A stretch of DNA of 64,000 nt from Candidatus Parcubacteria bacterium (lineage in GTDB: Bacteria > Patescibacteriota > Minisyncoccia > UBA6257 > HR35). Under the pieces are notes generated by a model that worked only from the letters and a program-made list of their open reading frames with translations, made no database searches and had not been told where the DNA came from. The stretch lies in assembly GCA_026004535.1 (NCBI GenBank), contig BPJI01000001.1:431424-495423 (forward strand), written 5' to 3'. This document shows positions 2,836 through 52,845 of this stretch, one piece after another. Within the stretch, counting starts at the first letter, position 1, and every line of letters starts with the position of its first letter. The position numbers and the translations under genes are program-made.

Positions 2836-3356
2836 TTTGTCTGTAAATTTAATTCAATATTCAAATTATTGTTAATTTTATCAATTTTAAAATTGATTGT
2901 TTGCCAAATTAAACCACTTTCAATCATAAAATTGGAAAATTTTTCCAAATCGCTCTCGGGCAACTGAAAAATAAAAGTTAATTTTTTTTCTTGTTGATTA
3001 AAACTTGTTGTTTGAATTGACCAATTCTCTTTTTGTAATTTTTCATTAACCAAATTTTTAGTTGTCTCAAAATCTCGATCTAATTTTTGATTAGCTTCAA
3101 ATAAAATTGTTTTTAATTCCTTACCAGTTTTTTGTTCAATCAAACTAACTATCTTTTTTATTTTATTTTGACTTTCAATTGTCGCTTGGTTTTGAATCAA
3201 TTTTTCTTTTAAATTATTAATCTCGTTTATTTTTGCCAAAGTTTTTTGGGAATAAAAATTAAGTATAAAAAAATAACCAACAGTTATCAGAAGAAAAATA
3301 AGAGTAAAAACAGCTATCTTTAAATAAATTTTATTTAATGTCTGATTATGGCCCAT
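2832..3356 (-). CDS. hypothetical membrane-anchored coiled-coil protein
   Basis: 174 aa with an N-terminal TM helix and a K/E/Q-rich coiled coil. It resembles PilN/PilO-type assembly proteins only in architecture. Confidence 0.35.
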   Translation of the reverse strand: MGHNQTLNKIYLKIAVFTLIFLLITVGYFFILNFYSQKTLAKINEINNLKEKLIQNQATIESQNKIKKIVSLIEQKTGKELKTILFEANQKLDRDFETTKNLVNEKLQKENWSIQTTSFNQQEKKLTFIFQLPESDLEKFSNFMIESGLIWQTINFKIDKINNNLNIELNLQTK

Positions 3357-3360
3357 TAAT

Positions 3361-3530
3361 TATTCATTACCCGGATATGGAACGGATAAATTAACTGGAT
3401 GTAAACCGGATGATATTATTAATTATTTTTACTCGGATTTACACCGGATAAACTACCCTGATTATAACCGGATATATCTGGTATTCATCCGGGTAATTAA
3501 TCAGGTATTTAATCCGGGTAATCTATTTAA
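3361..3530. repeat. ccggat-word repeat element (direct block, then inverted atccggg block)
   Basis: About a dozen (a)cccggat / aaccggat words at ~11-13 nt spacing, followed by the reverse-complement words catccgggtaa / aatccgggtaa. Confidence 0.8.
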
Positions 3531-5534: not shown

Positions 5535-6947
5535 ATGCTCTTAACTGGTTATGATTTAAGAGGTATTTTTAAAAAAGAATTGACTTTTGATGTTATTTAT
5601 CAAGCAACTAAACAGTTTTTTAAGAAATTAAAAATTAGAAAAGCCATTTTGGCTGTTGATGCAAATAGAAATAATTTTTTAATTAAAGATTTCTTAGAAA
5701 GAAATTTCAATCTTGAGTTTATTGGCGTTCTACCAACGCCAATTTTTTATTATAAAGTCATTAAAATAAAAATTCCTGGAATTATGATTACTGCTTCTCA
5801 TTTGCCTTTAAAATATTCGGGGTTGAAATTTATTTTAGAAAATGGCGAACCGTGGAAACCTTATATTAGCGCGTTGCCTTCGGGTCATACCCCCGAAGCC
5901 CACAGCCCTCGGAGTGCTATCGTACGCACCTCTGCCGGAATGACCCTCAGGCAAACGCGCCGGATAATTAATTTACAAAAGCACCAGATAATTAAGGAAT
6001 ATTTTAAAACTTTATTTTCTATCATCAAACCGAAAAAGAAAATTTTTGTTTGTTTTGATAAGAAAAATTTTTTTCTTAATGCTTCCCTACCCTATTTTGA
6101 AAAATTAAAAATTTTTCATCAAGATAATTCTCCAATTAAGATTAAATCTGATTTAGACAATGACAGAATTTTTGTTTATCTTAAAAAAAGAAAAATTCAT
6201 AATGATTTAATTTTTTATTATTTAGCTCTTTTGCCTCAATATAAGAAATTGGCTGTGCCAATATTTTTCAGTCAAAAACTAAGACAAGAACTTATTAAAA
6301 AAGGTAAGAAGATTTATTTTATTCCAACTGGACACTATTATTTCAAAAAAGCATTCAAAAAATATAATTTAGACTTAGGTTTTGAACCAAGTGGTCATTT
6401 TTATATGTTTAAAGATTTAAAAACAGAATCGCCCTATTTGGCCTTAGGTTTATTTTTACATTTATTAGCAGAACTTACGGACCTAACACAGACAGAACGG
6501 ACCAAACAGAGAATAGCCTTGGAGGAAATTTTAAAATTAAATAATTCACTTCAACTTTATCGTTTTGATATTAAGAAAATACAATCAGAAGAAAATGTTG
6601 TCTCTTTTTTGAAGAAGAGATATAAGTTAAAATTAAAAAAGTTTGACGGTTATTTATTATTTCCAAAGGAAAAAACAGAACTTACAAAACTAACACAGAA
6701 TTTAAATAAAAATACTATCGCAGAACTTACTGAACTAACACAGAACTTACAGAAAAATACTACCTCAGAAATTGCAGAACTAACACAGAACTCGCAGAAA
6801 AATTCAGTGAGTTCTGCGTCAGTTCAGCATGGTTCTGCGTTCTACCTGTATTTAAGGAAAAGCAAAACAGAAAATAAATTAAGAGTATCTTTTGAAGGCG
6901 ACAAAAAAATTCTCAAAGAAATAAAACAATGGCTCATGAAGATTTAA
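5535..6947 (+). CDS. phosphoglucomutase/phosphomannomutase-family protein carrying in-frame repeat insertions
   Basis: TASHLP (active-site Ser, SHNP-like) and GFEPSGH (GEESGH-like) phosphohexomutase motifs. Interrupted by a GC-rich ~100-nt insert and by ELTxLTQN repeat blocks. Confidence 0.6.
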   Translation: MLLTGYDLRGIFKKELTFDVIYQATKQFFKKLKIRKAILAVDANRNNFLIKDFLERNFNLEFIGVLPTPIFYYKVIKIKIPGIMITASHLPLKYSGLKFILENGEPWKPYISALPSGHTPEAHSPRSAIVRTSAGMTLRQTRRIINLQKHQIIKEYFKTLFSIIKPKKKIFVCFDKKNFFLNASLPYFEKLKIFHQDNSPIKIKSDLDNDRIFVYLKKRKIHNDLIFYYLALLPQYKKLAVPIFFSQKLRQELIKKGKKIYFIPTGHYYFKKAFKKYNLDLGFEPSGHFYMFKDLKTESPYLALGLFLHLLAELTDLTQTERTKQRIALEEILKLNNSLQLYRFDIKKIQSEENVVSFLKKRYKLKLKKFDGYLLFPKEKTELTKLTQNLNKNTIAELTELTQNLQKNTTSEIAELTQNSQKNSVSSASVQHGSAFYLYLRKSKTENKLRVSFEGDKKILKEIKQWLMKI

Positions 6948-8826: not shown

Positions 8827-8977
8827 TTTACGACGTCGTACGTCGTAAAGTAAATATAACGACGTGCGACGTCCAGATATTGAGAAAATAATATTTAGGA
8901 CATCGCACGTCTTAAATTATTTTCCGTGTCCGATTCCGTTCATTTCGCCTTTAAATTTTAGCACAATTTTCCACATC

Positions 8978-18940: not shown

Positions 18941-19765
18941 TCAGTAAATATCTTCTAGTTCTTCTTTCAAAACAATTGTTGGATTTTCGACTGCTTGATT
19001 TAGATTATCAATAATATTTCTGAATAAATCATCAAATTCTGTTGGTAGTCTTTTTCGTTTATAAGGATTTGCATAAGAAATAATTTGTTGATAAACATAA
19101 GGATGCCATTTGCCTAAATCTTTTAATTTTTGAGCAATCTCTTTAACTAAAGCATTAGCTTCTAAAACTTTCTCTGCTCGGGCTTCTCTAATTTTTAAAG
19201 CTTCGGGTAATTTTTCGTCCAAAAAGAAATCGCATTTTTTCAAAATTGGCTCGAAAGAACTACCTGCCAGTTTTTCTTGTTTTTCATAACTAATTCCTAA
19301 AGTTACATAATAAGCTTGCTCAATTGAATCAACCAGCTCAGGATCTGATTCTAACATTTCTGAATTAGATTGTAAGTATTGACGATAAATAGCAATAGCT
19401 ACGTGAGATTTTTCGCGAATATTTAATTCTTTCTCAATATTAAAGTTCATCATTAATTGAGCTAATCTTTGAGGGACAACAATTGCTGGAATTTCTCTGA
19501 TGCCAAGTTCTTTAGCTGCTAAATATCTGTGCTGACCATCAATAATAGTATAAGTGTCATTATTTTGGACAACAACGACCGGAACAATAAAACCAATTCT
19601 TTCAATTGAATTAGACAAATGTTTAACGTGATAAGAACTTGGTTTTCTTTGATGAGAAATAACTGATAACTTATCAATGGGAATTAATTTAAATTTTAAA
19701 TTTTGATGATGATAGGGATCAGCAAACTCTATCTCTGGTTGTAATTTGGTTTTTCTTGGAGCCAT
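18941..19765 (-). CDS. ParB-like nuclease domain protein
   Basis: The IIDGQHRYLAAKELGIREIPAIVV ParB/Srx N-terminal domain motif. Confidence 0.6.
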   Translation of the reverse strand: MAPRKTKLQPEIEFADPYHHQNLKFKLIPIDKLSVISHQRKPSSYHVKHLSNSIERIGFIVPVVVVQNNDTYTIIDGQHRYLAAKELGIREIPAIVVPQRLAQLMMNFNIEKELNIREKSHVAIAIYRQYLQSNSEMLESDPELVDSIEQAYYVTLGISYEKQEKLAGSSFEPILKKCDFFLDEKLPEALKIREARAEKVLEANALVKEIAQKLKDLGKWHPYVYQQIISYANPYKRKRLPTEFDDLFRNIIDNLNQAVENPTIVLKEELEDIY

Positions 19766-19774
19766 TTTATTATA

Positions 19775-19895
19775 TATTAACCGGATAAGTTACCCGGATT
19801 ATAACTGGATATAACTACCCGGCTTTTTACCGAATTCATTATGACAAAATAATCTAGGTGACTATCCGAGTAATCTATCCGGTAAGTTATCCGGG
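19775..19895. repeat. ccggat-word repeat element
   Basis: aaccggataagttacccggatt..., then inverted tatccgagtaa / atccggtaa / atccgggcaa words. Confidence 0.75.
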
Positions 19896-19942
19896 CAAAT
19901 AGATATCAGCAGCCATCCAACTAATTTATAATTATATTATAA

Positions 19943-23700: not shown

Positions 23701-23800
23701 ACCCGGATAACCAACCGGATTATTTTACCCGGATGATTACCGGATAAATCCGGTTTATATCCAGGTAGTATTATCCGGTTAATATCCGGGTAAAAATATT
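23701..23800. repeat. ccggat-word repeat element
   Basis: acccggataaccaaccggatt..., then atccaggta / atccggtta / atccgggtaa. Confidence 0.75.
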
Positions 23801-23823
23801 TTCTGCTGCTGTCTAAGGTATTA

Positions 23824-26634: not shown

Positions 26635-26640
26635 ATTTAA

Positions 26641-26780
26641 AATACTACCCGGATGATTACCTGATAAAAATATCTACCTGGATAAATACCGGATTATTTT
26701 ACCCGAATGCTTACCAGATAAATCCGGTTTGAATCCGGGTAACTATATCCGGCTAATATCAGGGTAACTAGTTTCTTTAT
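26641..26780. repeat. ccggat-word repeat element
   Basis: tacccggatgattacctgataaaa..., then atccggtt / atccgggtaa words. Confidence 0.75.
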
Positions 26781-27152
26781 CTATTTAATACCCGGCGATG
26801 ACACAATCAACACCCAACTTTTTTTAACTAAATCTGCTTCTTCTAAAATGGGGTCAATAACTCTTGAAACCTTGGCACAGTCTTCGATATTTACTCCTCC
26901 TTCTTTATCAATTTTAATTATTAAAGCAAATCTACCATTTTCACTACCGAATTGAATATCAAACAATTTATAACCCATATCCTCGATTACTTCTTCAATC
27001 AATTCTCTGACTTTTTCTTTTAGGTCCATTAGATAAGCCCGCTGACAGCTGAAGAAAATTTTTTCAGGGCGATGATAGCTGCGACATTTATCATATACAG
27101 CCGACAGCTGCTGAAATTTTTCAACCGCGGGCAGCTGCAGATATATATTCAT
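26781..27152 (-). CDS. rimP: ribosome maturation factor RimP, N-domain only; the ORF's first ~40 codons are a cagctgc repeat element
   Basis: MDLKEKVRELIEEVIEDMGYKLFDIQF...VLIVSSPGI matches the RimP N-terminal domain. The upstream in-frame extension (27030-27152) lies inside the cagctgc array. The usual C-terminal domain is absent. Confidence 0.55.
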   Translation of the reverse strand: MNIYLQLPAVEKFQQLSAVYDKCRSYHRPEKIFFSCQRAYLMDLKEKVRELIEEVIEDMGYKLFDIQFGSENGRFALIIKIDKEGGVNIEDCAKVSRVIDPILEEADLVKKSWVLIVSSPGIK

Positions 27153-27535
27153 TAGGCAGACAGCAGCGGAAAATCTTAAAACGCAGACAGCTGCGGAAAT
27201 GCTTTAACTACCCGGATGGTCTATCGGATATAATTACCCGGATAGCTTATCGGATAATGTTTATCCAGATGAATACCGGATTATTTTATCCGGATGATTA
27301 CCGGATATTTATCTAACCGGATAACTTACCGGATATAGTTACCCGGATAAACTAACGGATATAATTACCCGGATTAATAACCGGATAAAAATACTCTATA
27401 TATCATCCGGTCTATATCCGGGTAGTTCTATCCGGTTCATAGCCGGGTAGTATTATACGATTATAATCCGGGCAGAAAATATTTTCAGCTGCTGTCTGCG
27501 GTAAATACTCTGACCACTGCTGTCCATATTAATAA
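27040..27535. repeat. composite repeat hotspot: cagctgc block, ccggat direct+inverted block, ctgctgtc block
   Basis: 27040-27200 holds gacagctg / cagctgc words. 27205-27480 holds ccggat and atccgg words. 27481-27535 holds cagctgctgtctgcg. Confidence 0.8.
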
Positions 27536-27556: not shown

Positions 27557-28171
27557 ATGAAAAAATCAGCGGGAATTTTAATTTATAGAATAAAGCGGAA
27601 TCACACAGAACCAACACATAACTTACAGAAAAATTATGTCAATTCCGCGTCCGTTCTACATAGCTCAGCGTCTAAAAATAATTCAACGAGCTCAGCGTCG
27701 GTTCTGCGTAATTCTGCGGAAATAGAAGTTCTTTTAGTTCATCCTGGTGGACCATTTTATAAAAATAAAGATCTTTGGGATATACCAAAAGGTGAAATAG
27801 AAGAAAACGAAGAACCACTTCAGGCAGCCGTAAGAGAATTCAAAGAAGAAACGGGCTTGGTTTTTTCTTCCGATGATTTAAATAAAATTATTTTCTTTGA
27901 CAAATTTTTAAGACATACTGATAAAAAAACTATCTATATCTTTCTAATTGAAAAAAATTTTGGAAATAATTTAGTACCGAAAAGCAATTTTATCGAAATA
28001 GAATTTCCAGCTAAAAGTAAAAGATTTATAAAAATACCGGAAATTGATAAAATGGATTATTTTAATCTAAAAGAAGCTAAAGAAAAAGTTTTTCCCTGGT
28101 TAAAAGAATTGTTAGAAAAGTTTGAAAAATTTATTAATCAAGTTGATTTTGATCAAAAAATAAAAAATTAA
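27557..28171 (+). CDS. NUDIX hydrolase with an in-frame cagaac/gttctgcg repeat insertion near the N-terminus
   Basis: Nudix box GEIEENEEPLQAAVREFKEETG. The insert at 27597-27730 encodes NHTEPTHNLQKN...SASVLHSSAS..SASVLRNSAE. Confidence 0.75.
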   Translation: MKKSAGILIYRIKRNHTEPTHNLQKNYVNSASVLHSSASKNNSTSSASVLRNSAEIEVLLVHPGGPFYKNKDLWDIPKGEIEENEEPLQAAVREFKEETGLVFSSDDLNKIIFFDKFLRHTDKKTIYIFLIEKNFGNNLVPKSNFIEIEFPAKSKRFIKIPEIDKMDYFNLKEAKEKVFPWLKELLEKFEKFINQVDFDQKIKN

Positions 28172-34720: not shown

Positions 34721-37501
34721 TTAATATTTCATTTGCAACCTTATTTTTCTATTAATTTTTGCTTTTTCTAAAATAACATTCTTTGTTTTTTCAAATCGCT
34801 TAAAGTTTTCTTGGTTCAAAAATTCTTCAAGTTCTTTTTCCTCAACAAAAGCACCGATATAAGGAATTGTTGATTTTAATATTTTAATTAAAACAAAATC
34901 ACTTTTACCTGGCCCACCACCTTTTTCTTCTAATTTTTGCCAATTTTCTTTTAACCAATTAAAAGTGAATTTTGCTGCATTTGAATTTAAAGAAACTGAA
35001 TTGAAAAAGAAAATAGTCTGATTAAATCTAACTTGTGAAGAAAGAATAAATTCAAAAATAGAACTTAACTTTTCTAAATTTTGTAAATTACCAAAAGCAA
35101 TTAAACATTTATTTTGTTCTTCAATCAAATTAGTCTGATGATAATAATTCAAAAGTTTTTCTAAATAGTTATCATTAGCAATTAAAGCATTATTAAAGAT
35201 TGCTTGTTTAATATCAGGATGAAGTTTTTCTTTGTCTTTTAAAAATTCTTCAAATTTTTCTTGGCTGAAATCTAAAATCTCTTTATTCTTCAAAATTCCC
35301 AAAGAAAATAGAGTTTTTTGCCTTAAAACTGTTTCATAAGGTTGTTCACCTTCCCTCGGCTCTTTTCCTAAAATATCCAAAACTTTTAAAGAAAATTTTT
35401 CTAATAAAGCGGAAAGGTCAGAAACGGACGCGGAACGAACGGAATAAGCGGAACTGGTTTTTCCGTCTGTTCCATTTTTTCCGTGTCCGTTTCCGTCTGT
35501 TCTGCTTTGATCTGTATCAATTCTGCGCAGTTCCGCGTTTAGTCTGCGTTGGTCTACGTCTATCCTGCGTTGGTCTGCGTTTAGTAAATAATAATAAAAA
35601 TTTAAATAAGAAATAATTTCACTAAAAACAAAGGGTTTAGAATTATTGATAAAATATTTTTCTAAAATTTCTAAAAAGTTTTCAAAATTTTTCTCACCCT
35701 TTCTAACTAACATATCATAATCATGAACTAAATGAACCTGATCAATTTCATTTAATTTTTCTAAATTCTCTAAATTTCTTTTTAGAATTTCTTCATCATA
35801 ATCACTAACAAAAAAACTTGAATAGTTTTTATTAAGAATAAAAGTTGAAAAATTAGATTCAGGAATTGGGGCGATTTCTTCTTTTTCTTTTAATATTTTT
35901 CTTTCTTCTTTATTATCAATTTCAATCACAAAAGGAATTTTCCAATAATCTTCTCTGTCTTCTAAAAATAAGAATCTCCTTTGTCTTAAACAGTATCTGC
36001 CTTGCTCTTTTTTAAAACTTACCAAAGGATAGCCAACTTTTTCAATATAATCTTTCATAATCTCAACCACTGGCACACTCGAAACTTCTTCTAAGCATTG
36101 CCACAAATCTTCTGCTTTAGCATTTTGATAAGTAAATTTTTTAATATACAGCCTCAATCCTTCTCTAAATTTTTCTTCACCTAAATAATTCTCAATCATC
36201 CTTAAAACACTGCCACCTTTTTCATAAGATATCTCATCAAAAATTTCAACTGACTCATTTGGATCTTTAACCTCAACTTTAATCGGGTGAGAAGCAATCA
36301 AACCATCAGCATTCAAAGCACTAAAAACTTCATCCAAAACATATTTTTCTAAAATTCTCCAATTAGGATAAAAATTATTAACAGCTTTATAAGCTAAATA
36401 AGTGGCAAAGCTTTCATTTAACCATAAATCGTCCCACCACTTCATTGTTACTAAATTACCAAACCACATATGAACTAATTCATGAGCAATAACTTCAGCA
36501 ATTCTTTCTTGGGTAGATTTTGGTGTTATGCCTTCGAAAACTAAAAGTAAATTCTCGCGAAAAGTAATTGCTCCCCAATTTTCCATTGCTCCAGCAGCAA
36601 AATCAGGAACAGCGATTAGATCTAATTTTTTTAAGGGATAAGGGGAATCAAAATATTCTTCTAAATAATTTAAAAATTTTTTAGCATTTTCTAAAGCAAA
36701 TCTTACTCCTTCTAATTTTTCCTTTGGCGTAACTGCCACTCGAATAATAACTTCTTTATATTTATCTTCAACAAAATACCAATCACCAATTCCAATATAC
36801 AAAAGATAAGTTGACATCTTGGGAGTTGTTTCAAAAATCACTTTTTTCTTTTCATTAACAATTTCTTCTTTAATTGGCAAAGTATTGGAAATTGCTTTTA
36901 ATTCTTTAGGAAAAATTAAAGTTAAATCAAACGTTGCTTTTTTATCTGGGTCATCAAAACAAGGAAAAGCTTTGCGTGCTTCAATTGGTTCAAATTGAGT
37001 TGTGATTAAACATTTTTCTTGTTCTTTGTCTTTATATTTACTTAAATAAATTCCTCCTAAAACCTCTTTTAATTCTCCTTCAAAATCAATAAAAATAGTA
37101 TTATCTTTTTCAGAAAAATTATTTTTAATCAAAATTCCATCTTTTTGAACTTCAAAATCTACATCTTGGTCATTCACTTTTAGCTGATTAATTTTTAAAT
37201 CAACAGCATCAATTTTTAGAAAATTACCCCGATGATCACCTGATAGATTACCCGGATAATTGTCTGGCATATTACCCGGATAATCACTGGATAAATCCGG
37301 TTCATATTCGGGTAGTATTATCCGGTTAATATCCGGGTGGTTCCATCCGGTTTGAATCCGGGTAGCTGTATCTGGTTTTAATCCGGGTAAACTAATTCTT
37401 ATCTCTTCTCTGCCTCGATAAATATTCTTCTCTAAATCAAAGTCTAATTCAATTTTATAATTTCTAACTTCCATTATTTTTCCTTGATAAATTTTCAACA
37501 A
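34721..37501 (-). CDS. pepN: aminopeptidase N (M1 family) with in-frame repeat insertions
   Basis: GAMENWG exopeptidase motif and HELVHMWFGNLVT...WLNESFA zinc motif. The acggaa/ctgcg element at 35395-35580 and the ccggat element at 37228-37392 sit inside the ORF. Confidence 0.85.
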   Translation of the reverse strand: MLKIYQGKIMEVRNYKIELDFDLEKNIYRGREEIRISLPGLKPDTATRIQTGWNHPDINRIILPEYEPDLSSDYPGNMPDNYPGNLSGDHRGNFLKIDAVDLKINQLKVNDQDVDFEVQKDGILIKNNFSEKDNTIFIDFEGELKEVLGGIYLSKYKDKEQEKCLITTQFEPIEARKAFPCFDDPDKKATFDLTLIFPKELKAISNTLPIKEEIVNEKKKVIFETTPKMSTYLLYIGIGDWYFVEDKYKEVIIRVAVTPKEKLEGVRFALENAKKFLNYLEEYFDSPYPLKKLDLIAVPDFAAGAMENWGAITFRENLLLVFEGITPKSTQERIAEVIAHELVHMWFGNLVTMKWWDDLWLNESFATYLAYKAVNNFYPNWRILEKYVLDEVFSALNADGLIASHPIKVEVKDPNESVEIFDEISYEKGGSVLRMIENYLGEEKFREGLRLYIKKFTYQNAKAEDLWQCLEEVSSVPVVEIMKDYIEKVGYPLVSFKKEQGRYCLRQRRFLFLEDREDYWKIPFVIEIDNKEERKILKEKEEIAPIPESNFSTFILNKNYSSFFVSDYDEEILKRNLENLEKLNEIDQVHLVHDYDMLVRKGEKNFENFLEILEKYFINNSKPFVFSEIISYLNFYYYLLNADQRRIDVDQRRLNAELRRIDTDQSRTDGNGHGKNGTDGKTSSAYSVRSASVSDLSALLEKFSLKVLDILGKEPREGEQPYETVLRQKTLFSLGILKNKEILDFSQEKFEEFLKDKEKLHPDIKQAIFNNALIANDNYLEKLLNYYHQTNLIEEQNKCLIAFGNLQNLEKLSSIFEFILSSQVRFNQTIFFFNSVSLNSNAAKFTFNWLKENWQKLEEKGGGPGKSDFVLIKILKSTIPYIGAFVEEKELEEFLNQENFKRFEKTKNVILEKAKINRKIRLQMKY

Positions 37502-38000
37502 TATTTATTTGACTAAATGGAATAAAAACTTTAGACCCATTTTCTGTTTCTAAAATTAAATAACGAGAGGTAAAATCAATAACCTTACCTTTAAAACTAT
37601 TATTAATTATAATTTCTTCATTCTTTCTAAAAACATCCTCAAAAACAAAAAGCCAACCAGTAAAAACATCACGCAGATTATTTTGAAAAATTAAAACCAA
37701 AACCGCACCTAAAGCACCAGCTCCAGTCAAAATAGCATTAACATTAAGTTTAAATTGTTTCAAAACAAAAATAAAAAAAATAAAAAGCAAAATAAATCTT
37801 AAAATCATCTTCACTGTCTTAATAATAGTAACAACTCTTTCTAAATGAAATAATTTGGCACTTGCCTTGAATGCTAAAGATAAAATTTTGGCTATTAAAA
37901 AATAGATCAAAACCAAAAACAAAGTAAAAATTAAAATTGACTGTATCTCGTCTTTAAACTGACTTAATAAATTAAAAATTAAACTATAATATACCTGCAT
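37464..38000 (-). CDS. small-conductance mechanosensitive channel (MscS family, short form)
   Basis: TM helices followed by the MscS beta domain (GKVIDFTSRYLILETENGSKVFIPFSQI). Confidence 0.55.
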   Translation of the reverse strand: MQVYYSLIFNLLSQFKDEIQSILIFTLFLVLIYFLIAKILSLAFKASAKLFHLERVVTIIKTVKMILRFILLFIFFIFVLKQFKLNVNAILTGAGALGAVLVLIFQNNLRDVFTGWLFVFEDVFRKNEEIIINNSFKGKVIDFTSRYLILETENGSKVFIPFSQINIVENLSRKNNGS

Positions 38001-39840: not shown

Positions 39841-39990
39841 ATTTTTACCCAGATTATAACCAGATAATACTACCCGGATATTAACCGGATATAACTACTC
39901 GGATTCAAACCGGATACAAATACCCGGATATAAACCGGTATTCATCCGGGTAATCTATCCGGTATTAATCCGGGCATATTAATAAAATCT
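39841..39990. repeat. ccggat-word repeat element
   Basis: taacccagat / aaccagat / acccggat words, then catccgggtaa / atccggtatt / aatccgggca words. Confidence 0.8.
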
Positions 39991-48116: not shown

Positions 48117-49614
48117 TTTTAACAACGACCTTTTTAATAATTGACCCTTGTTTAGTATCTTCAATTTTATAACCAGCTTCCAATACTTCTTCTCTAATTT
48201 TATCAGCTTCCTGCCACTTCCCTTCTTTTCTTAATCTTTCTCTTAATAAAACTTTCTTTTTAATTTCAGCTGGTAATTTTTGTTTTGCTAAAAATTCTTT
48301 GAATCCTAACCCCAAAATTTTATCAGCCTCTAAAACAAAAATTTTTTTAAATTTTAAATCTTCATCTGACTTTAAAATTTCCCATAATTTAGCAATTAAT
48401 CGAGGAGTATCAAGATCATAATTAACAATATTTAATATTTCTTTAAAAGCAGAATTATGCAGAACTAAATCAGAACTACCCAGAGCCGAGACTCGCTTGT
48501 CGCCAAATAGTGATTTATACAAATTAATAGAAAGATTAAAGCTGGAGATCGTCTCTAAAAGTAAGTTATATGCATTTTGAGCTGATTCCATTGCTTGCCA
48601 AGTAAAATTCATTTCTGAACGATAATGTGAGGTTAAAACTAAATATCTAAAAGCAAGCGGTTGAAAACCTTTTTTCTCAATATCTTCTAAAGTAATAATA
48701 TTTCCTAAACTTTTCGCCATTTTCTCTCCCTCAACTTTTAAAAAATTTACATGAAGCCAATAATTAACAAATTTTTTACCAGTTGCTGCTTCTGATTGAG
48801 CAATTTCATTAGTATGATGAATATCAATGTGATCAATACCGCCAGTATGAATATCGATTGTTTTACCTAAATATTTCATTGACATTGCTGAACATTCAAT
48901 ATGCCAACCAGGAAAACCAATGCCCCAAGGACTTCTCCATTCCATTTGTCTTTTCACATCTTTAGGTGAAAATTTCCATAGAGCAAAATCATACGGATTT
49001 CTTTTTTCAGGATTTATCTCAACTCTCGCGCCAGCTAATAATTTTTTCCTTTTAATTTGGGCCAATATACCATAATTTTTAAACTTAGAAGTGTCAAAAT
49101 AAATGCCATCTGAAATTTTGTAAGTATAGCCCTTTTTTTCTAAAATCTTTATAAGCTCAATCATTTCTTTTATATGCTGAGTTGCTCGAGGAAACTTAAA
49201 AGGAGTTTTGATATTTAATTTTTTAATATCTTCCTTGAAAATTTTTTCAAAATAACGTGCAATTTCCCAAGCAGTTTTTCTTTTTTCTCTGGCACTTTTT
49301 TCAATTTTATCTTCACCAGTATCAGCATCAGAGGTTAAATGTCCAACATCAGTAATGTTAATAATTTGTTTTACTTTATAGCCATTATACTCAAGTGTTC
49401 TTCTTAAGGTATCGGCAAAAATATAAGCTCTTAAATTACCAATATGAGGTCTTTCATAAACAGTTGGCCCACAATTATACATCGTTACTATCTTATCTTT
49501 CAAAGGTTTAAATTTTTCTTTTCTTCGAGTTAAGGTATTAAATAGATAAAGAGGCTCCATTAATTTAATTATAATTCGGTAATATCTCTTGGTAAAAATA
49601 AATTCAAAATCCAA
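48112..49614 (-). CDS. cysS: cysteine--tRNA ligase
   Basis: HIGNLRAY (HIGH motif) and KMAKSLGN (KMSKS motif). Confidence 0.9.
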
Positions 49615-51002
49615 TCAATAAATGTTTTAACTTGATCTCGAAAAGAAATCATTTTGCTTAAATAAACTCCTTTCCAAATAAACCAACTAATTAAACCAGA
49701 AAATTCAATTCCTTTAATTTCACCTAAGGCATAAAACCTACCAACTGAAATCAAATCGCCAGCATGTTTATAAATAAATTTCTGCAATGGTTTATTTTCA
49801 ATTAAATTTTTAATATTTAAAGCAACTAATTTTGCTTGTCTAACTGCAACTTGAGCTAATTGTGGTAATGGTTTTTGATCTTGAATAAAACAACAAACAT
49901 CACCAATTGCAAAAACATTATCATATACAGAACTACTCAGAACTGATGCAGGACTGACTGAATTATCTTTGGTTGCAGAACTATACTGAACTGACACTGA
50001 ACTAACAGAATTATTCTGTGAGTTCTGTATTGGTTCTGTATGTTCTGCATTATTCTGCAAATTCTGTGTAAGTTCAGCTCTTTCTGCGTCTATTTTCTTT
50101 TTCACCTGCAAATATTCATTTAAAACTAGTCTTCCTTTATTATCTTTTTCAACGTTACCAATAATTTCTGGTAAATTTGGTTCAACTCCTGCTGTCCAAA
50201 TAACTGTTTTTGTTTCAATAACATTACCGTCATCAAGTTTAATAAAATCTTCACCAACCTCAATTACTCCTTTTTCTAGTCTAACATCAACTTTTAATTT
50301 TTTTAACCTTTCAAGTGCTTTTTGTCTTAATTTTGGAGAAAATTGAGGAATTAATTCTTTGCCTTTTTCGATTAGAATTATTTTAACTTGTGAAATTAAA
50401 TCTGATGAATATAATTTACTAAATGTTTTATAAAACAAATCACTCATTTCACCAGCCAATTCAACTCCTGTTGCTCCACCTCCAACAATGACAAAAGTGA
50501 GATATTTATTTACCTTTTCTGGATATAAACTTCCTATTTCAAACATATGAACAAATCTATTTTTCAATCTTATAGCGTCATCAATTGTTTTTAAGGAAAA
50601 ACTATATTCTTTAGCCCCAGGAATATTGTAATAATTTGTTTTCGAACCTAAGGCAATAACTAGATAATCATAATTAACATTATAATCTTCTCTTTCTTTA
50701 TTTATGTAAACAATTTTGTTCTCTAAATCAATTTTTTCAACTTCTCCATGAACAAAATCAAAATCACAACATCTAATAATTTCTCTTATGGGTTCTAGGG
50801 CATTATCAATCGAAACTCCGCCAGTAGCAACTTCATGAAGTAAAGGCGTAAAAATAAAATAATTCTTTTTATTCACCAATACTAATTTTACTTTCTTATT
50901 ATGAAAAAGTTTATGTAAATGTTTTAAAGCATAAACACCACCAAATCCTCCACCTAAGATTACTATCTTCATTAAATAATCGGAAATAACGGAAACAAAC
51001 AC
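49569..51002 (-). CDS. ndh: type II NADH dehydrogenase / pyridine nucleotide-disulfide oxidoreductase with an in-frame cagaac/gttctg repeat insertion
   Basis: [12 protein letters not shown] motif and a second Rossmann motif [11 protein letters not shown]. The insert at 49925-50100 encodes [34 protein letters not shown]... Confidence 0.75.
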
Positions 51003-51110
51003 GGAATGAGCGGAAGAAACGGAAAAAACTCCGTTAATTCCGATAGTCAGCTTCTTCCGTGTTATGTCGTTCTTTCCGTTAATTCCGTGTTAAGTTCCGC
51101 AAGTTCTGTT
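50980..51110. repeat. acggaa-word repeat element (direct block, then inverted ttccgt block)
   Basis: aatcggaaataacggaaacaaacacggaatgagcggaagaaacggaaaa, then ctccgttaattccg...ttccgtg...ttccgtt...ttccgtg. Confidence 0.8.
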
Positions 51111-51540: not shown

Positions 51541-52845
51541 TTAAATTTTAGCACAAATTTCTAATAATCTATTATATTTTACTACTCTTTCACCTTGTAA
51601 AGGAACACCGATTTTAAAATAATCTGCACCAAAAGCAATTCCTAAATCAATTAGCCAATTATCATTTGTTTCGCCACTACGATGTGAAAAAATAGTAAAT
51701 AAATTATTTTCTTTGGCTAATTTAACAAAATTAAATGTTTCAGTTATGGTGCCGATTTGATTAGGTTTGACAATTACACCATCAACAGAATTTTTCTCTA
51801 AAGCAATTTTTAATCTTTCAATATTGGTCACTGTTAAATCATCGCCAATTACTTTAAATCCTTCTTTACGAAGTTCAGCAAATTTTTCAAATTCATTTTC
51901 TTTATATGGATCTTCTAAATATTTAACACCCAAAATTTTTAATTTTCGATAAACATTCTTCCAATTAACTATATTTGTTATTTGATTAGCAGCAATATCA
52001 GCTCCAAGCTCAAAATAAAAATTATTACCCGGATGATTACCGGATAAATCCGGTTTATATCCGGGTAAATTATCCGTATCCGGTTTAAATCCGGGCAACT
52101 TATCCGGTTGTAATCCGGGTAAATTATCCGGTTCATATCCGGATAAATTACTAGTTACTTCTTTTAAATATAAAAAAGGTTCATAATTATCACTAAAGTT
52201 TGTACAAAATGCTCCTTCATCGTTTCTTCCTAATGGTTTAGGCAATTTTTTTTCAATCTGATTAATAATACTAATGATCTTAGCGATTAAAAGTTCAAAA
52301 TATGCAGCATTGAAAGAATTTTTCCGTAAGTTCTGCGTCAGTTCCGTGTAGTGCTGTGTTATTAACCAATATTCCTGAAAATCTAAATTATTAAAAGAAT
52401 GCACTCCTCCACCAATAATATTTAAAATTAATCTTAGCATTCGTGTAGACTCGTCCTTATTTATTCGTGTAGATTCGTTTTTTAAATATTCAAACAACTC
52501 CAAATTTTTACTTTTAGCTAGAGCTCGAGCAAAACTGATTGAAACTCCTAAAGTAAAATTACCTCCTAATTTTTCTTTATTCTTCCCTGCTCTTTCAATT
52601 AAAAATTCATCTAATTCATTAAGATTTTGAAAATCTTTATTTTTTATATCTTTCAAAAATTCGCTTAAATTCTTTTTAATTTTTTCACAATCTAAACAAA
52701 CAACCTCATGAGAACCGATACTTTTCCCAGAAGGAATTGACGCTTTTTCTTTTATTCCTTCACTTTCAATCTCAACCTCGATTGTCCATTCTCCTCTTGA
52801 GTCTAAAATTTTATTTACTTTTATATCATTTATTTTCATCTTCAA
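51541..52845 (-). CDS. eno: enolase (phosphopyruvate hydratase) carrying three in-frame repeat-element insertions
   Basis: ILDSRGEWTIEVEI N-terminus, NDEGAF, YLEDP, IGDDLTVTN, KPNQIG, SHRSGETND and KYNRLLEI catalytic motifs. Inserts at 52024-52150 (ccggat), 52325-52360 (cagaac/ctgcg) and 52436-52480 (cgtgtagac). Confidence 0.85.
   Translation of the reverse strand: MKMKINDIKVNKILDSRGEWTIEVEIESEGIKEKASIPSGKSIGSHEVVCLDCEKIKKNLSEFLKDIKNKDFQNLNELDEFLIERAGKNKEKLGGNFTLGVSISFARALAKSKNLELFEYLKNESTRINKDESTRMLRLILNIIGGGVHSFNNLDFQEYWLITQHYTELTQNLRKNSFNAAYFELLIAKIISIINQIEKKLPKPLGRNDEGAFCTNFSDNYEPFLYLKEVTSNLSGYEPDNLPGLQPDKLPGFKPDTDNLPGYKPDLSGNHPGNNFYFELGADIAANQITNIVNWKNVYRKLKILGVKYLEDPYKENEFEKFAELRKEGFKVIGDDLTVTNIERLKIALEKNSVDGVIVKPNQIGTITETFNFVKLAKENNLFTIFSHRSGETNDNWLIDLGIAFGADYFKIGVPLQGERVVKYNRLLEICAKI

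Follow-up and report, generated by a model that had tools for sequence, protein, structure and literature searches.

The two repeat blocks within the pepN gene appear, on balance, to belong to a superfamily of selfish palindromic repeat elements that is specific to this lineage, and to be copies that lie in frame and are translated. We refer to these elements as mirror arrays, a name coined in this analysis for tandem word units that are followed by their reverse complement. We infer that they are mobile and would seed new sites in spacers and genes alike, often at the centre of an existing element, which would result in concentric layers, and that the arrays would lengthen and shorten as whole units are gained or lost by slippage. 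Intragenic copies would be purged by selection on the host protein unless they are stop-free, have a length that is a multiple of three, are located in a permissive surface loop and are read in the frame that gives a hydrophilic peptide rich in Pro, Gly, Asp and Asn (LPGxKPD...SGNHPGN for the CCGGAT family), and the pepN inserts would be two such survivors.

The window, that is, the whole 64-kb stretch of DNA that was analysed, contains pepN on the minus strand at 34721..37474. The gene encodes an M1-family aminopeptidase (tricorn-interacting-factor F2/F3-like) with the Pfam domains Peptidase_M1_N, Peptidase_M1 and ERAP1_C. The mechanical ORF is 926 aa long (34721..37501, minus strand) with its upstream end at the TTG at 37501; the true start is probably the ATG at 37474, which matches the orthologues and the 917-aa protein P0001 from Ca. 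Parcubacteria KatS3mg096. P0001 is 100% identical to the window pepN, and the catalytic motifs GAMEN and HExxH...E are intact. The preliminary description held that repeat blocks encode peptides inside pepN. This was confirmed, since both peptides that it quoted are present in the 926-aa ORF and the blocks are absent from most close orthologues. In the orthologue alignments the closest relatives are mostly ~815 aa long and have neither block, and by this comparison both blocks are real insertions. The AlphaFold model of pepN has a mean pLDDT of 87.6 with values below 50 only at the inserts (residues 33-82 and 660-680 in the 917-aa numbering), which lie between secondary-structure elements and leave the catalytic core intact. 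Both inserts map to low-confidence surface loops in the predicted structure.

Insert 1 is a CCGGAT mirror array of 56 codons (37223..37390, minus strand). In gene sense, the 5' arm (37295-37390) consists of four 25-nt units (TTACCCGGAT...AACCGGAT) and the 3' arm (37223-37294) of 24-nt units (ATCCGGGTAAT...). The encoded peptide of 54-56 residues, (L)PGLKPDTATRIQTGWNHPDINRIILPEYEPDLSSDYPGNMPDNYPGNLSGDHRG(N), is longer than the one first quoted for 37228-37392. It was missing in all 35 other pepN orthologues aligned and, on that alignment, is unique to this lineage. The stretch with pLDDT below 50 (residues 33-82 of the 917-aa protein) lies between two beta strands, and the DNA folds into a hairpin of -28.5 kcal/mol (z = -3.05). 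Because the four units of the 5' arm are each 25 nt long, the frame rotates A, C, B, A along it (LPGLKPD / TRIQTG / HPDINRI / LPEYEPD). At just the points where frame C would run into a stop in the canonical unit, the insert has a different sequence (TTCAA for TTTAA, GATGG for GATAA), and it is stop-free in all three motif phases. Six of its 14 words are degenerate, and the copy looks old and decaying.

Inserts of this kind might be missing from the mature product, through RNA excision or through translational bypassing of the hairpin, as exemplified by the GC-rich "byp" elements of yeast mitochondria. The inserts are indeed strong local hairpins within coding sequence. However, neither route would need inserts that are stop-free, a multiple of three in length and in a single frame, yet such inserts are what was seen, and no stops are left in any phase of the pepN copy. 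An Rfam gathering search of the window returned two tRNAs only, with no intron or ribozyme match, and on this result the inserts were also rejected as self-splicing introns or known structured RNAs. We consider loss from the product very improbable and favour inserts that would be translated.

Insert 2 (35408-35581, minus strand) comprises two arrays, first one of ACGCAG words and then an ACGGAA/TTCCG mirror array, and encodes the 58-aa peptide NADQRR...SVSDLSA, which bears out the earlier assignment of an acggaa/ttccg/ctgcg block at 35395-35580 as coding. Its outer part (35501..35581, minus strand) is an array of ACGCAG(A/G) words in 21-nt (10+11) dimers. It encodes the heptad-like sequence NADQRRI DVDQRRL NAELRRI DTDQSR, which in the AlphaFold model extends helix 614-659 with a pLDDT of ~66-69. 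The inner part (35408..35500, minus strand) is the ACGGAA/TTCCG mirror array, with its 5' arm at 35459-35500 (TDGNGHGKNGTDGK), its 3' arm at 35408-35458 (TSSAYSVRSASVSDLSA), CGGAA words ordered >>>><<<< and pLDDT below 50 at residues 660-680. The insert 2 region (35385-35590) gave a hairpin fold of -34.9 kcal/mol (z = -5.26). In P0002, P0007, P0014 and P0017 the same site is occupied by other arrays (TQTDADL..., QINAD...). The preliminary view that pepN carries two element types holds in that the inserts belong to different word families, but these share one common architecture and are often nested in each other in relatives.

Across the window, there were 47 occurrences of CCGGAT where 3.3 were expected and 22 of ATCCGGG where 0.4 were expected, and the three-word pattern ACCCGGAT..ACCGGAT..ACCCGGAT occurred 7 times compared to 0.00 in 100 shuffles. 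Repeat abundance is far above chance. The 5' arm is built from tandem 10-13-nt units around a GC-rich word, NCRGAW (CCGGAT, ACGGAA, ACGCAGAC, CAGAAC, ACGGAT), and the 3' arm from the reverse-complement units; a long imperfect hairpin can therefore form in either DNA strand or in a transcript, and the array reads alike in both orientations. Fold z-scores across the elements folded ranged from -3.0 to -7.5. In low-GC sequence, clusters of at least four CCGGAT words always had the forward words before the reverse ones, a few with one word misplaced, and the opposite arrangement never occurred. CCGGAT elements have conserved ends, TTACCCGGAT...ATCCGGGTAA, which are terminal inverted repeats, and 15 of 50 copies have the centre CCGGAT-NN-ATCCGG. 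The same form recurs in the CGGAA, CAGAA and ACGGAT families. Elements are 70-300 nt in size, with word periods of 10-14 nt and AT-rich filler spacers of 3-8 nt, and about half of them are located in genes. The outer ACGCGGAC/GTCTGCGT family forms G.T pairs on one strand and A.C pairs on the other. A strand-specific (RNA or ssDNA) structure was considered for this pairing and rejected, as both orientations occur in genes and perfectly complementary variants exist (L076 NDH2).

Many intergenic spacers of the window are occupied by arrays, for which no strand is assigned. The largest intergenic CCGGAT mirror array (12295..12607) has 13 forward and 5 reverse words in 25-26-nt dimers and folds with -64.5 kcal/mol (z = -7.46). 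Other CCGGAT mirror arrays lie between genes at 3355..3522, 23701..23809, 26639..26764, 27205..27502 (with GCTGC/GCAGC words in its flanks) and 39846..39976. A CGGAA/TTCCG mirror array, the word family of the inner part of insert 2, is intergenic at 18268..18359, and another covers the 5' end and upstream region of the NDH2 gene (50981..51099). No near-identical copies were found in the window, the best pairs being ~78% identical with normalised scores of at most 0.49, so the window gives no hint of a recent burst.

Insert presence and absence was observed among close relatives. pepN genes that are 91-97% identical in DNA differed by whole 60-200-nt inserts at four hot-spot sites, and NDH2 and enolase each had three such sites. 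The hot-spot sites are reused in orthologues; where different families recur at one site, this could be due in part to recombination exchanging alleles and not to repeated de novo insertion. In orthologous genes of L034, L053 and L072, the LSG(N/P/S)HPGN run gets shorter step by step, the reverse CCGGAT words numbering 11, 9 and 8. Orthologous copies also decay, with point mutations abolishing the words as well as the peptide motif (P0007 compared to P0014). At seven filled/empty junctions (pepN and NDH2; alleles 91-97% identical in DNA) no target-site duplication was found. In the filled alleles, 10-30 nt of the native loop is replaced and not simply interrupted.

The junctions are what would be expected if the arrays were generated in situ. 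Short palindromic seeds would then be extended by fold-back (hairpin-primed) synthesis and by replication slippage, with whole units added outward or inward and common words arising from mutational or polymerase bias or from gene conversion between arrays. The unit-number polymorphism between strains, which shows active slippage, and the concentric layers, with elements nested within one another in relatives, are also consistent with this origin. A small palindrome, CAGATCTG, is present in the empty form of pepN site 3 and is like the ACGCAGAC/GTCCGCGT words of filled alleles, and the palindrome of an element sometimes extends beyond its ends (GATAT...ATATC flanking the one in the L002 NDH2 gene). 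Thermophilic polymerases have reportedly been found by Ogata and co-workers to lengthen short palindromic tandem repeats in vitro, which also counts for it. However, the same 8-9-nt words, ends and centre recur at dozens of unrelated sites in several related genomes, which would be hard to reach independently from different seeds, and the empty alleles of pepN insert 1 and of most other sites contain no seed. We regard in-situ generation as unlikely and prefer selfish elements that spread, probably by hairpin or single-strand-dependent copying rather than classic cut-and-paste transposition. Pfam searches of ~58 ORFs with 100 aa or more in the window, which covers 64 kb of the 556-kb contig, revealed no transposase, RAYT, integrase or homing endonuclease, and no Y1_Tnp-type match was found in the window. 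We also considered that the split RNR and CysRS genes of L075 had been broken by elements. No GC-rich words were present at these break points, and the splits therefore look like plain frameshifts or stop changes.

Reading frame was analysed in about 45 related low-GC (25-33%) metagenome contigs that carry the three-word pattern and come from a limited number of samples. Frame A (LPGxKPD...SGNHPGN) was used by 29 of 30 distinct intragenic CCGGAT elements, and the intragenic hexamer counts were 206 for frame A, 29 for B and 6 for C. Among copies outside long ORFs, frame A was open no more often than frame C (18/72 and 16/68, respectively). A 24-nt period was found in 86 of 114 intragenic dimers, and unit periods were divisible by 3 in 84% of intragenic copies compared to 50% elsewhere (Fisher p = 1e-8). 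Intragenic CCGGAT elements occurred in at least ten different protein types. Pfam scans of ten host ORFs identified TruB, Mur ligases, PEP synthase, RNase P protein, an MnmA-type tRNA-modification enzyme (tRNA_Me_trans domains), PGA_cap, an M23/YkuD protein and an alpha/beta hydrolase. The source of the window pepN is a hot-spring Parcubacterium, and repeats of this kind also fill the intergenic spacers of its lineage and are found inside many other housekeeping genes, there almost always in one frame. Together with the presence/absence among orthologues, the frame and period biases strongly back the preliminary idea of mobility plus frame selection.

The extreme frame bias would also be expected if the modules benefited the host, so that the bias reflected function rather than tolerance. 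The peptides could be useful by providing flexible loops rich in Pro and Gly or by extending helices with heptads, or the hairpins could act in transcription or translation pausing, in mRNA stability or as binding arrays for nucleoid proteins. Consistent with this, the ACGCAG words are spaced by 10.5 bp, the helical repeat, the encoded heptad is added to a helix in the model, and arrays occupy numerous spacers of the window. In contrast, the inserts are patchy among near-identical strains and lacking from most orthologues, their words and peptide motif are decaying (P0007 compared to P0014, and the degenerate words of pepN insert 1), and the peptides are disordered in the model. A benefit to the host seems improbable to us, and we favour selfish copies that would be tolerated where they do little harm to the protein.

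No relevant earlier description was found in the Parcubacteria/Patescibacteria literature, and the Katase hot-spring MAG paper does not mention such repeats. Among species-representative genomes, in which the source lineage is not represented, the three-word CCGGAT pattern gave 16 single matches, none in a Parcubacteria record; these were mostly in unrelated, typically GC-rich taxa and were taken as chance rather than true elements. A scan of viral contigs for the pattern gave 0 matches and hence no sign of a phage vector.

The enolase gene of the window (51541..52839, minus strand; Pfam Enolase_N and Enolase_C; 432 aa as P0121, with an ORF that reaches the TTG at 52845) also contains a CCGGAT mirror array. 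The array (52021..52149, minus strand) spans 43 codons with 24/30-nt dimer periods and encodes the peptide NLSGYEPDNLPGLQPDKLPGFKPDTDNLPGYKPDLSGNHPGNN. It has a long 5' arm of 8-9 words and a short 3' arm of 2 words, nearly all of them intact, and a fold z-score of -5.50; this copy looks young and intact. The shortest enolase orthologues among those listed are 367-375 aa long, and inserts of various word families were present at the site in 9 of 106 orthologues. The preliminary description had related the pepN and enolase peptides. This was borne out, with both belonging to one CCGGAT repeat family: the peptides are 44% identical over 41 aa (BLASTP, E = 2e-7) and the DNA blocks roughly 78% over 122 nt. 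It had also proposed that the two DNA copies should be closer to each other than to other ccggat arrays. The normalised local score between them was 0.41, not above the 0.40-0.49 obtained with intergenic copies (enolase against 12295 and 39846, 0.40 and 0.41), and instead of clustering together both had their nearest relative in the intergenic copy at 23701 (pepN 0.49, enolase 0.44). There is therefore no special sister relationship between the two intragenic copies, and their peptides are alike because one repeat family is translated in one frame. The proposed insertion in the same frame applies to the pepN insert only in its 3' arm and in the last unit of its 5' arm, not in the rest of that rotating arm. 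Overall, the shared family, part of the shared frame and the idea of mobility with frame selection stand, and a special kinship and a complete common frame do not.

More broadly, although we hold this at somewhat less than even odds, these repeats may represent an undescribed class of protein-coding palindromic elements that remodel the proteomes of thermophilic Parcubacteria with ultra-small genomes. In each genome, dozens of housekeeping enzymes would then have strain-variable loops translated from hairpin DNA, with one reading frame for all word families and new elements nested in old centres, perhaps spreading by transposase-free, hairpin- or single-strand-templated copying without target duplication. 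To our knowledge, there is essentially one textbook bacterial case of in-frame selfish DNA inside essential genes, the Rickettsia RPEs, for whose properties Ogata et al. 2000 and 2002 are reportedly a further source. Mirror arrays would be a second, independent system of this kind, in a streamlined CPR genome, with a much clearer selection signature (29 of 30 in one frame, 24-nt units) and with strain polymorphism already in public metagenomes. Existing data could thus yield rates of gain and loss, site preference and the cost to proteins. In Parcubacteria MAGs the elements inflate and vary protein lengths. They can lead pipelines for orthology, domains and structure astray, and assembly could plausibly suffer from their mirrored repeats.

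Several known repeat classes share features with mirror arrays. Assignment as a CRISPR array (24-48-nt direct repeats with unique spacers of similar length) was rejected since the units are mirrored with periods of 10-14 nt and 3-8-nt AT-rich filler. REP/BIME elements are likewise short, non-autonomous, inverted-repeat or hairpin sequences in many copies, as are MITEs; the REP/BIME type (20-40-bp palindrome, GTAG/CGTC head, RAYT Y1/HUH) was rejected on the 10-13-nt NCRGAW units, the 70-300-nt size and the lack of a RAYT in the window. Some MITEs form in-frame fusions (PMC10969869), and mirror arrays resemble MITEs in their terminal inverted repeats (TTACCCGGAT...ATCCGGGTAA) but show no target-site duplication, and no parent IS was found in the window. 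PARCELs are coding tandem repeats whose DNA has dyad symmetry, as in mirror arrays, and their 25-residue amphipathic domains form ORFs of unassigned function, many with membrane-targeting sequences (PMC2996958). They are not enzyme inserts and intergenic copies are not reported, whereas mirror arrays occur both in enzymes and between genes. The palindromic microsatellite-like repeats of Fusarium mitochondria and the double-hairpin elements of Allomyces differ in presence between close relatives and are associated with indels (PMC7218506). They share the palindromic organisation of short repeats but are organellar; those of Fusarium are described as intergenic, and the part of the text searched mentions no in-frame insertion. 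Yeast mitochondrial GC clusters are GC-rich hairpin elements in a very AT-rich genome, strain-variable and not explained by cut-and-paste alone (PMC4478555). Mirror arrays are similarly GC-rich, hairpin-forming and strain-variable, a resemblance that is functional only: GC42-type clusters are single ~40-nt hairpins with an AG target duplication and mostly intergenic, and assignment to the yeast type (a single ~30-50-nt hairpin with an AG target) was rejected because mirror arrays are multi-unit and have no flanking duplication.

The closest parallel is with the RPEs, palindromic non-autonomous repeats of about 100-150 bp that occur between genes and inside many unrelated housekeeping genes, in frame and with a family-specific peptide at positions predicted to be tolerated by the fold, with several families per small genome and no known transposase (PMC10969869). 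Mirror arrays are also palindromic with long hairpin potential, lie in frame in unrelated genes with a conserved peptide (pepN, enolase and about 30 more in related contigs) and occupy fold-compatible positions, as judged from the pepN model and the reuse of hot spots. In contrast to RPEs, their arms are tandem units around a short GC-rich word, so that copy number varies by slippage, they nest concentrically, and one reading frame is common to all word families. Their host is a thermophilic Parcubacteria (CPR) lineage, whereas RPE-1 to RPE-10 belong to Rickettsiales. Because this unit-array build sets them apart from published RPE descriptions, we file mirror arrays as an analogue of the RPEs rather than a member.

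The pepN gene was identified on the reverse strand as an M1 aminopeptidase ORF (34721..37501) with Peptidase_M1_N, Peptidase_M1 and ERAP1_C domains, in a window of ~28% GC whose ORFs, scanned with Pfam, were ordinary housekeeping genes. Its product has 100% identity with a protein encoded on a 556-kb contig of the MAG "Candidatus Parcubacteria bacterium KatS3mg096". This name suggests the Katase hot-spring series of PMC9671151, which reports a spring temperature of 52 °C and does not mention the MAG. Orthologues and the database entry place the probable start at the ATG at 37474 (MEVRNY...). With the mechanical call, which begins with the TTG at 37501, the ORF overlaps an MscS-like ORF (37464-38000). 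Both pepN peptides quoted in the preliminary description were found in this ORF. The CCGGAT block (insert 1, nt 37223-37390) encodes LPGLKPDTATRIQTGWNHPDINRIILPEYEPDLSSDYPGNMPDNYPGNLSGDHRGN, in which the 29 residues quoted are present within a longer peptide of 54-56 residues. The ACGCAG plus ACGGAA/TTCCG block (insert 2, nt 35408-35581) encodes NADQRRIDVDQRRLNAELRRIDTDQSR-TDGNGHGKNGTDGK-TSSAYSVRSASVSDLSA. The closest pepN orthologues were 65-73% identical, and most were ~815 aa long and had neither block; both blocks are thus insertions. Insert 1 was found in this lineage alone among the pepN orthologues aligned.

In the AlphaFold model of the 917-aa PepN (mean pLDDT 87.6), pLDDT fell below 50 in two segments only. 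Residues 33-82 correspond to insert 1 and lie in the N-terminal domain, with a beta strand on either side; residues 660-680 hold the ACGGAA/TTCCG stretch of insert 2 and lie between two C-terminal-domain helices. The ACGCAG part of insert 2 has 21-nt dimers and therefore encodes a heptad, modelled as a helix extension (pLDDT ~67). The catalytic motifs, GAMEN and HExxH...E, have remained intact. The inserts thus look like tolerated surface loops.

CCGGAT occurred 47 times in the window compared to 3.3 expected, and the three-word CCGGAT pattern 7 times compared to 0 in 100 shuffles. In the window and related metagenome contigs, all CCGGAT clusters of at least four words in low-GC sequence ran forward and then as ATCCGG, forming a mirror array; the opposite order was never seen, and a few clusters had one word misplaced. 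The array ends were conserved (TTACCCGGAT...ATCCGGGTAA), the centre was often a perfect palindrome, CCGGAT-NN-ATCCGG (15/50 copies), and the word variants ACCCGGAT and AACCGGAT alternated at spacings of 11 and 13-14 nt. The mirror form was also observed for CGGAA (18268-18359; 35410-35535 in pepN; 50981-51099, as CGGAA/TTCCG across the 5' end of the NDH2-type oxidoreductase gene at 49569-51002), CAGAA (6676-6872; 49928-50086, as CAGAA/TTCTG inside the NDH2 gene) and ACGGAT (16396-16617), the form common to the families being NCRGAW. DNA hairpin folds exceeded shuffled controls for insert 1 (z = -3.05), insert 2 (z = -5.26), the enolase block (z = -5.50) and the copy at 12295-12607 (z = -7.46). 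Nesting was frequent: in pepN of contig L001, ACGCAGAC x3 enclosed a CCGGAT hairpin followed by GTCCGCGT x3, in that of L002 ACGGAT lay outside a CCGGAT hairpin followed by ATCCGCGT, and many further CCGGAT copies were likewise flanked by outer words. The "two element types" first noted in pepN do belong to different word families; because the mirror form, NCRGAW words, hairpins and nesting are common to the families, they form part of a single architectural superfamily.

In L001, L022, L028, L035, L043, L059 and L068, nested elements had asymmetric outer arms. On one strand of this outer family ACGCGGAC pairs with GTCTGCGT via G.T, and on the other ACGCAGAC/GTCCGCGT have an A.C mismatch; genes contain either orientation, and some variants are perfectly complementary. 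Mirror arrays also fill many intergenic spacers (3355-3522, 10332-10527, 12295-12607, 16378-16634, 18268-18359, 19758-19914, 23701-23809, 26639-26764, 27205-27502 and 39846-39976). As spacers of every type, divergent and tandem, hold them, the arrays are not specifically terminator-like. Another palindromic word pair, CGACG/CGTCG, forms an intergenic cluster at 8831-8950 between a ZnuA-like gene and a pilin-like ORF.

The preliminary description had paired the pepN copy with that of enolase (nt 52021-52149, encoding NLSGYEPDNLPGLQPDKLPGFKPDTDNLPGYKPDLSGNHPGNN) as one element copy type inserted in the same frame. The two blocks were ~78% identical over 122 nt of DNA, with a normalised local score of 0.41. 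Comparable scores were obtained with intergenic copies, namely 0.49 for pepN and 0.44 for enolase against the copy at 23701, and 0.40 and 0.41 for enolase against those at 12295 and 39846. The alignments thus place both copies in one family and show no special kinship between them. The peptides are indeed alike (BLASTP, 44% over 41 aa, E = 2e-7), because one repeat is translated in one frame. The enolase copy consists of 24/30-nt dimers and keeps to a single frame. In the pepN copy the 5' arm is built from four 25-nt units, similar to the 25-26 nt seen in this genome's intergenic copies, and the frame consequently shifts in the order A, C, B, A (LPGLKPD / TRIQTG / HPDINRI / LPEYEPD), before the 24-nt 3' arm goes on in A. 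"Same frame" accordingly applies to the 3' arm and the last 5' unit, and not to the rest of the 5' arm. Frame C of the canonical unit contains stops (ATT TAA and GGA TAA, e.g. at 12295-12607), and at those positions the pepN copy reads TTCAA and GATGG. Six of its 14 words are degenerate compared to nearly all intact in enolase, which suggests that the pepN copy is the older.

Firmer evidence for frame selection than this lone pair came from related metagenomes. The three-word scan of metagenome contigs gave 53 loci, ~45 of them at 25-33% GC and from a limited set of JGI samples. Among 185,579 species-representative genomes the same scan gave chance matches only, and viral contigs gave no match. 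Of the arrays at the metagenome loci, about half lay within ORFs of at least 200 aa. Ten host ORFs were scanned with Pfam and include TruB, Mur ligases, PEP synthase, RNase P protein, PGA_cap, an MnmA-type tRNA-modification enzyme (tRNA_Me_trans domains), an M23/YkuD protein and an alpha/beta hydrolase. Frame A, LPG[YFL][KQE]PD...SG[NK]HPGN, was dominant in 29/30 distinct intragenic elements (hexamers: A 206, B 29, C 6). Among 35 copies lying outside long ORFs, A was open no more often than C (18/72 and 16/68), so stop codons alone leave the bias unexplained. The dimer period was 24 nt in 86/114 intragenic intervals, and a multiple of 3 in 84% compared to 50% outside long ORFs (Fisher p = 1.3e-8). 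In enolase orthologues an analogous frame is used by other word families, e.g. CCGAAT as YPN...FGxNSG. Frame selection on intragenic copies is thus well supported. It is unlikely that the inserts are removed before or in the course of translation, since such removal would not require one frame, stop-free sequence or 24-nt units.

Insertion sites were recurrently used. The insert 2 site, between ...YLNFYYY and LLEKFSL..., was also filled in orthologues P0002, P0007, P0014 and P0017, with TQTDADL arrays, a nested LPGFDPD...SGKHPG element or QINAD arrays, and two more pepN sites, RFLFLE^WKIP and NLEKL^SEID, were filled in other orthologues. In a neighbour-joining tree of pepN, insert carriers were scattered among near-identical sequences, and genes of 91-97% DNA identity differed by whole blocks of 60-200 nt. 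In orthologous genes of L034, L053 and L072 the LSG(N/P/S)HPGN run shortens stepwise (11, 9 and 8 reverse CCGGAT words), evidence of slippage in 24-nt steps. A 21-nt GC-rich mini-hairpin, CCTGCCTACCGGCAAGGCAGG, lies within an ACGCAGAC word at site 4 of the L076 pepN (~11780-11800); with the similar GCCTGCCTGCCGGCAAGGCAGGG in another gene (mini-hairpins were noted in L076 pepN and the L002 NDH2 5' region), it points to one more element family. A GIY-YIG domain ORF (83-91 aa) is immediately 5' of pepN in L001, L002, L003, L074 and L076; the window pepN has an MscS-like gene upstream and no GIY-YIG ORF at that place.

Enolase orthologues (~370-506 aa) have three hot-spot sites, and the one used in the window was filled in 9/106, by several word families. 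NDH2 orthologues from the same contigs (404-590 aa) differed in their inserts at three sites. The window enolase (51541-52839) has two more short GC-word stretches (52320-52360 and 52440-52480), one with ttccg/ctgcg words within the part encoding HYTELTQNLRKNSF and one with ttcgtgtag words encoding ESTRINKDESTR, both at or a few residues from orthologue hot spots (after residues 128 and 169). Some related enolases of 550-660 aa, including P0129, P0149, P0160, P0161, P0165, P0171, P0172 and P0183, have a PF13366 domain (GxxExxY, PD-(D/E)XK-type nuclease) besides the enolase domains, apparently a nuclease-like module fused to enolase or inserted in it. A PGM/PMM-like ORF (5535-6947), with a dense GC-word cluster (5817-5985) and a long CAGAAC array (6676-6872, 45-nt TRF period), probably hosts in-frame elements as well. 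RimP (26781-27152) has a ~50-aa N-terminal extension of GCTGC/GCAGC words (27023-27152; 123 aa compared to 81-83 in relatives), and a NUDIX protein (27557-28171; 204 aa compared to 146-162) carries a block of GC words close to the N terminus (27644-27753).

The best-supported reading is that a selfish, non-autonomous palindromic family would spread while selection on host proteins filters its copies, as proposed for Rickettsia RPEs (PMC10969869). A benefit of the peptides or hairpins to the host is less likely, because distribution is patchy and words have decayed. No target-site duplication was found at filled/empty pepN and NDH2 junctions, in filled alleles the insert takes the place of 10-30 nt of the native loop, and Pfam detected no transposase among ORFs of the 64-kb window. 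These observations keep alive a rather improbable rival, that fold-back priming and slippage build the arrays locally; a small palindrome, CAGATCTG, resembling filled-allele words is also present at one empty site.

Compared with known systems, the arrays failed the test for MITE identity (no target duplication) and that for REP/RAYT identity. No description of these repeats in Parcubacteria was found in the literature searched. The mirror arrays work like Rickettsia RPEs, beside which they are set as an analogue, and also resemble two systems of fungal mitochondria in how they work, the mobile GC clusters and the palindromic microsatellites. They differ from these in their unit-array arms, concentric nesting, one reading frame for all families and a different host.
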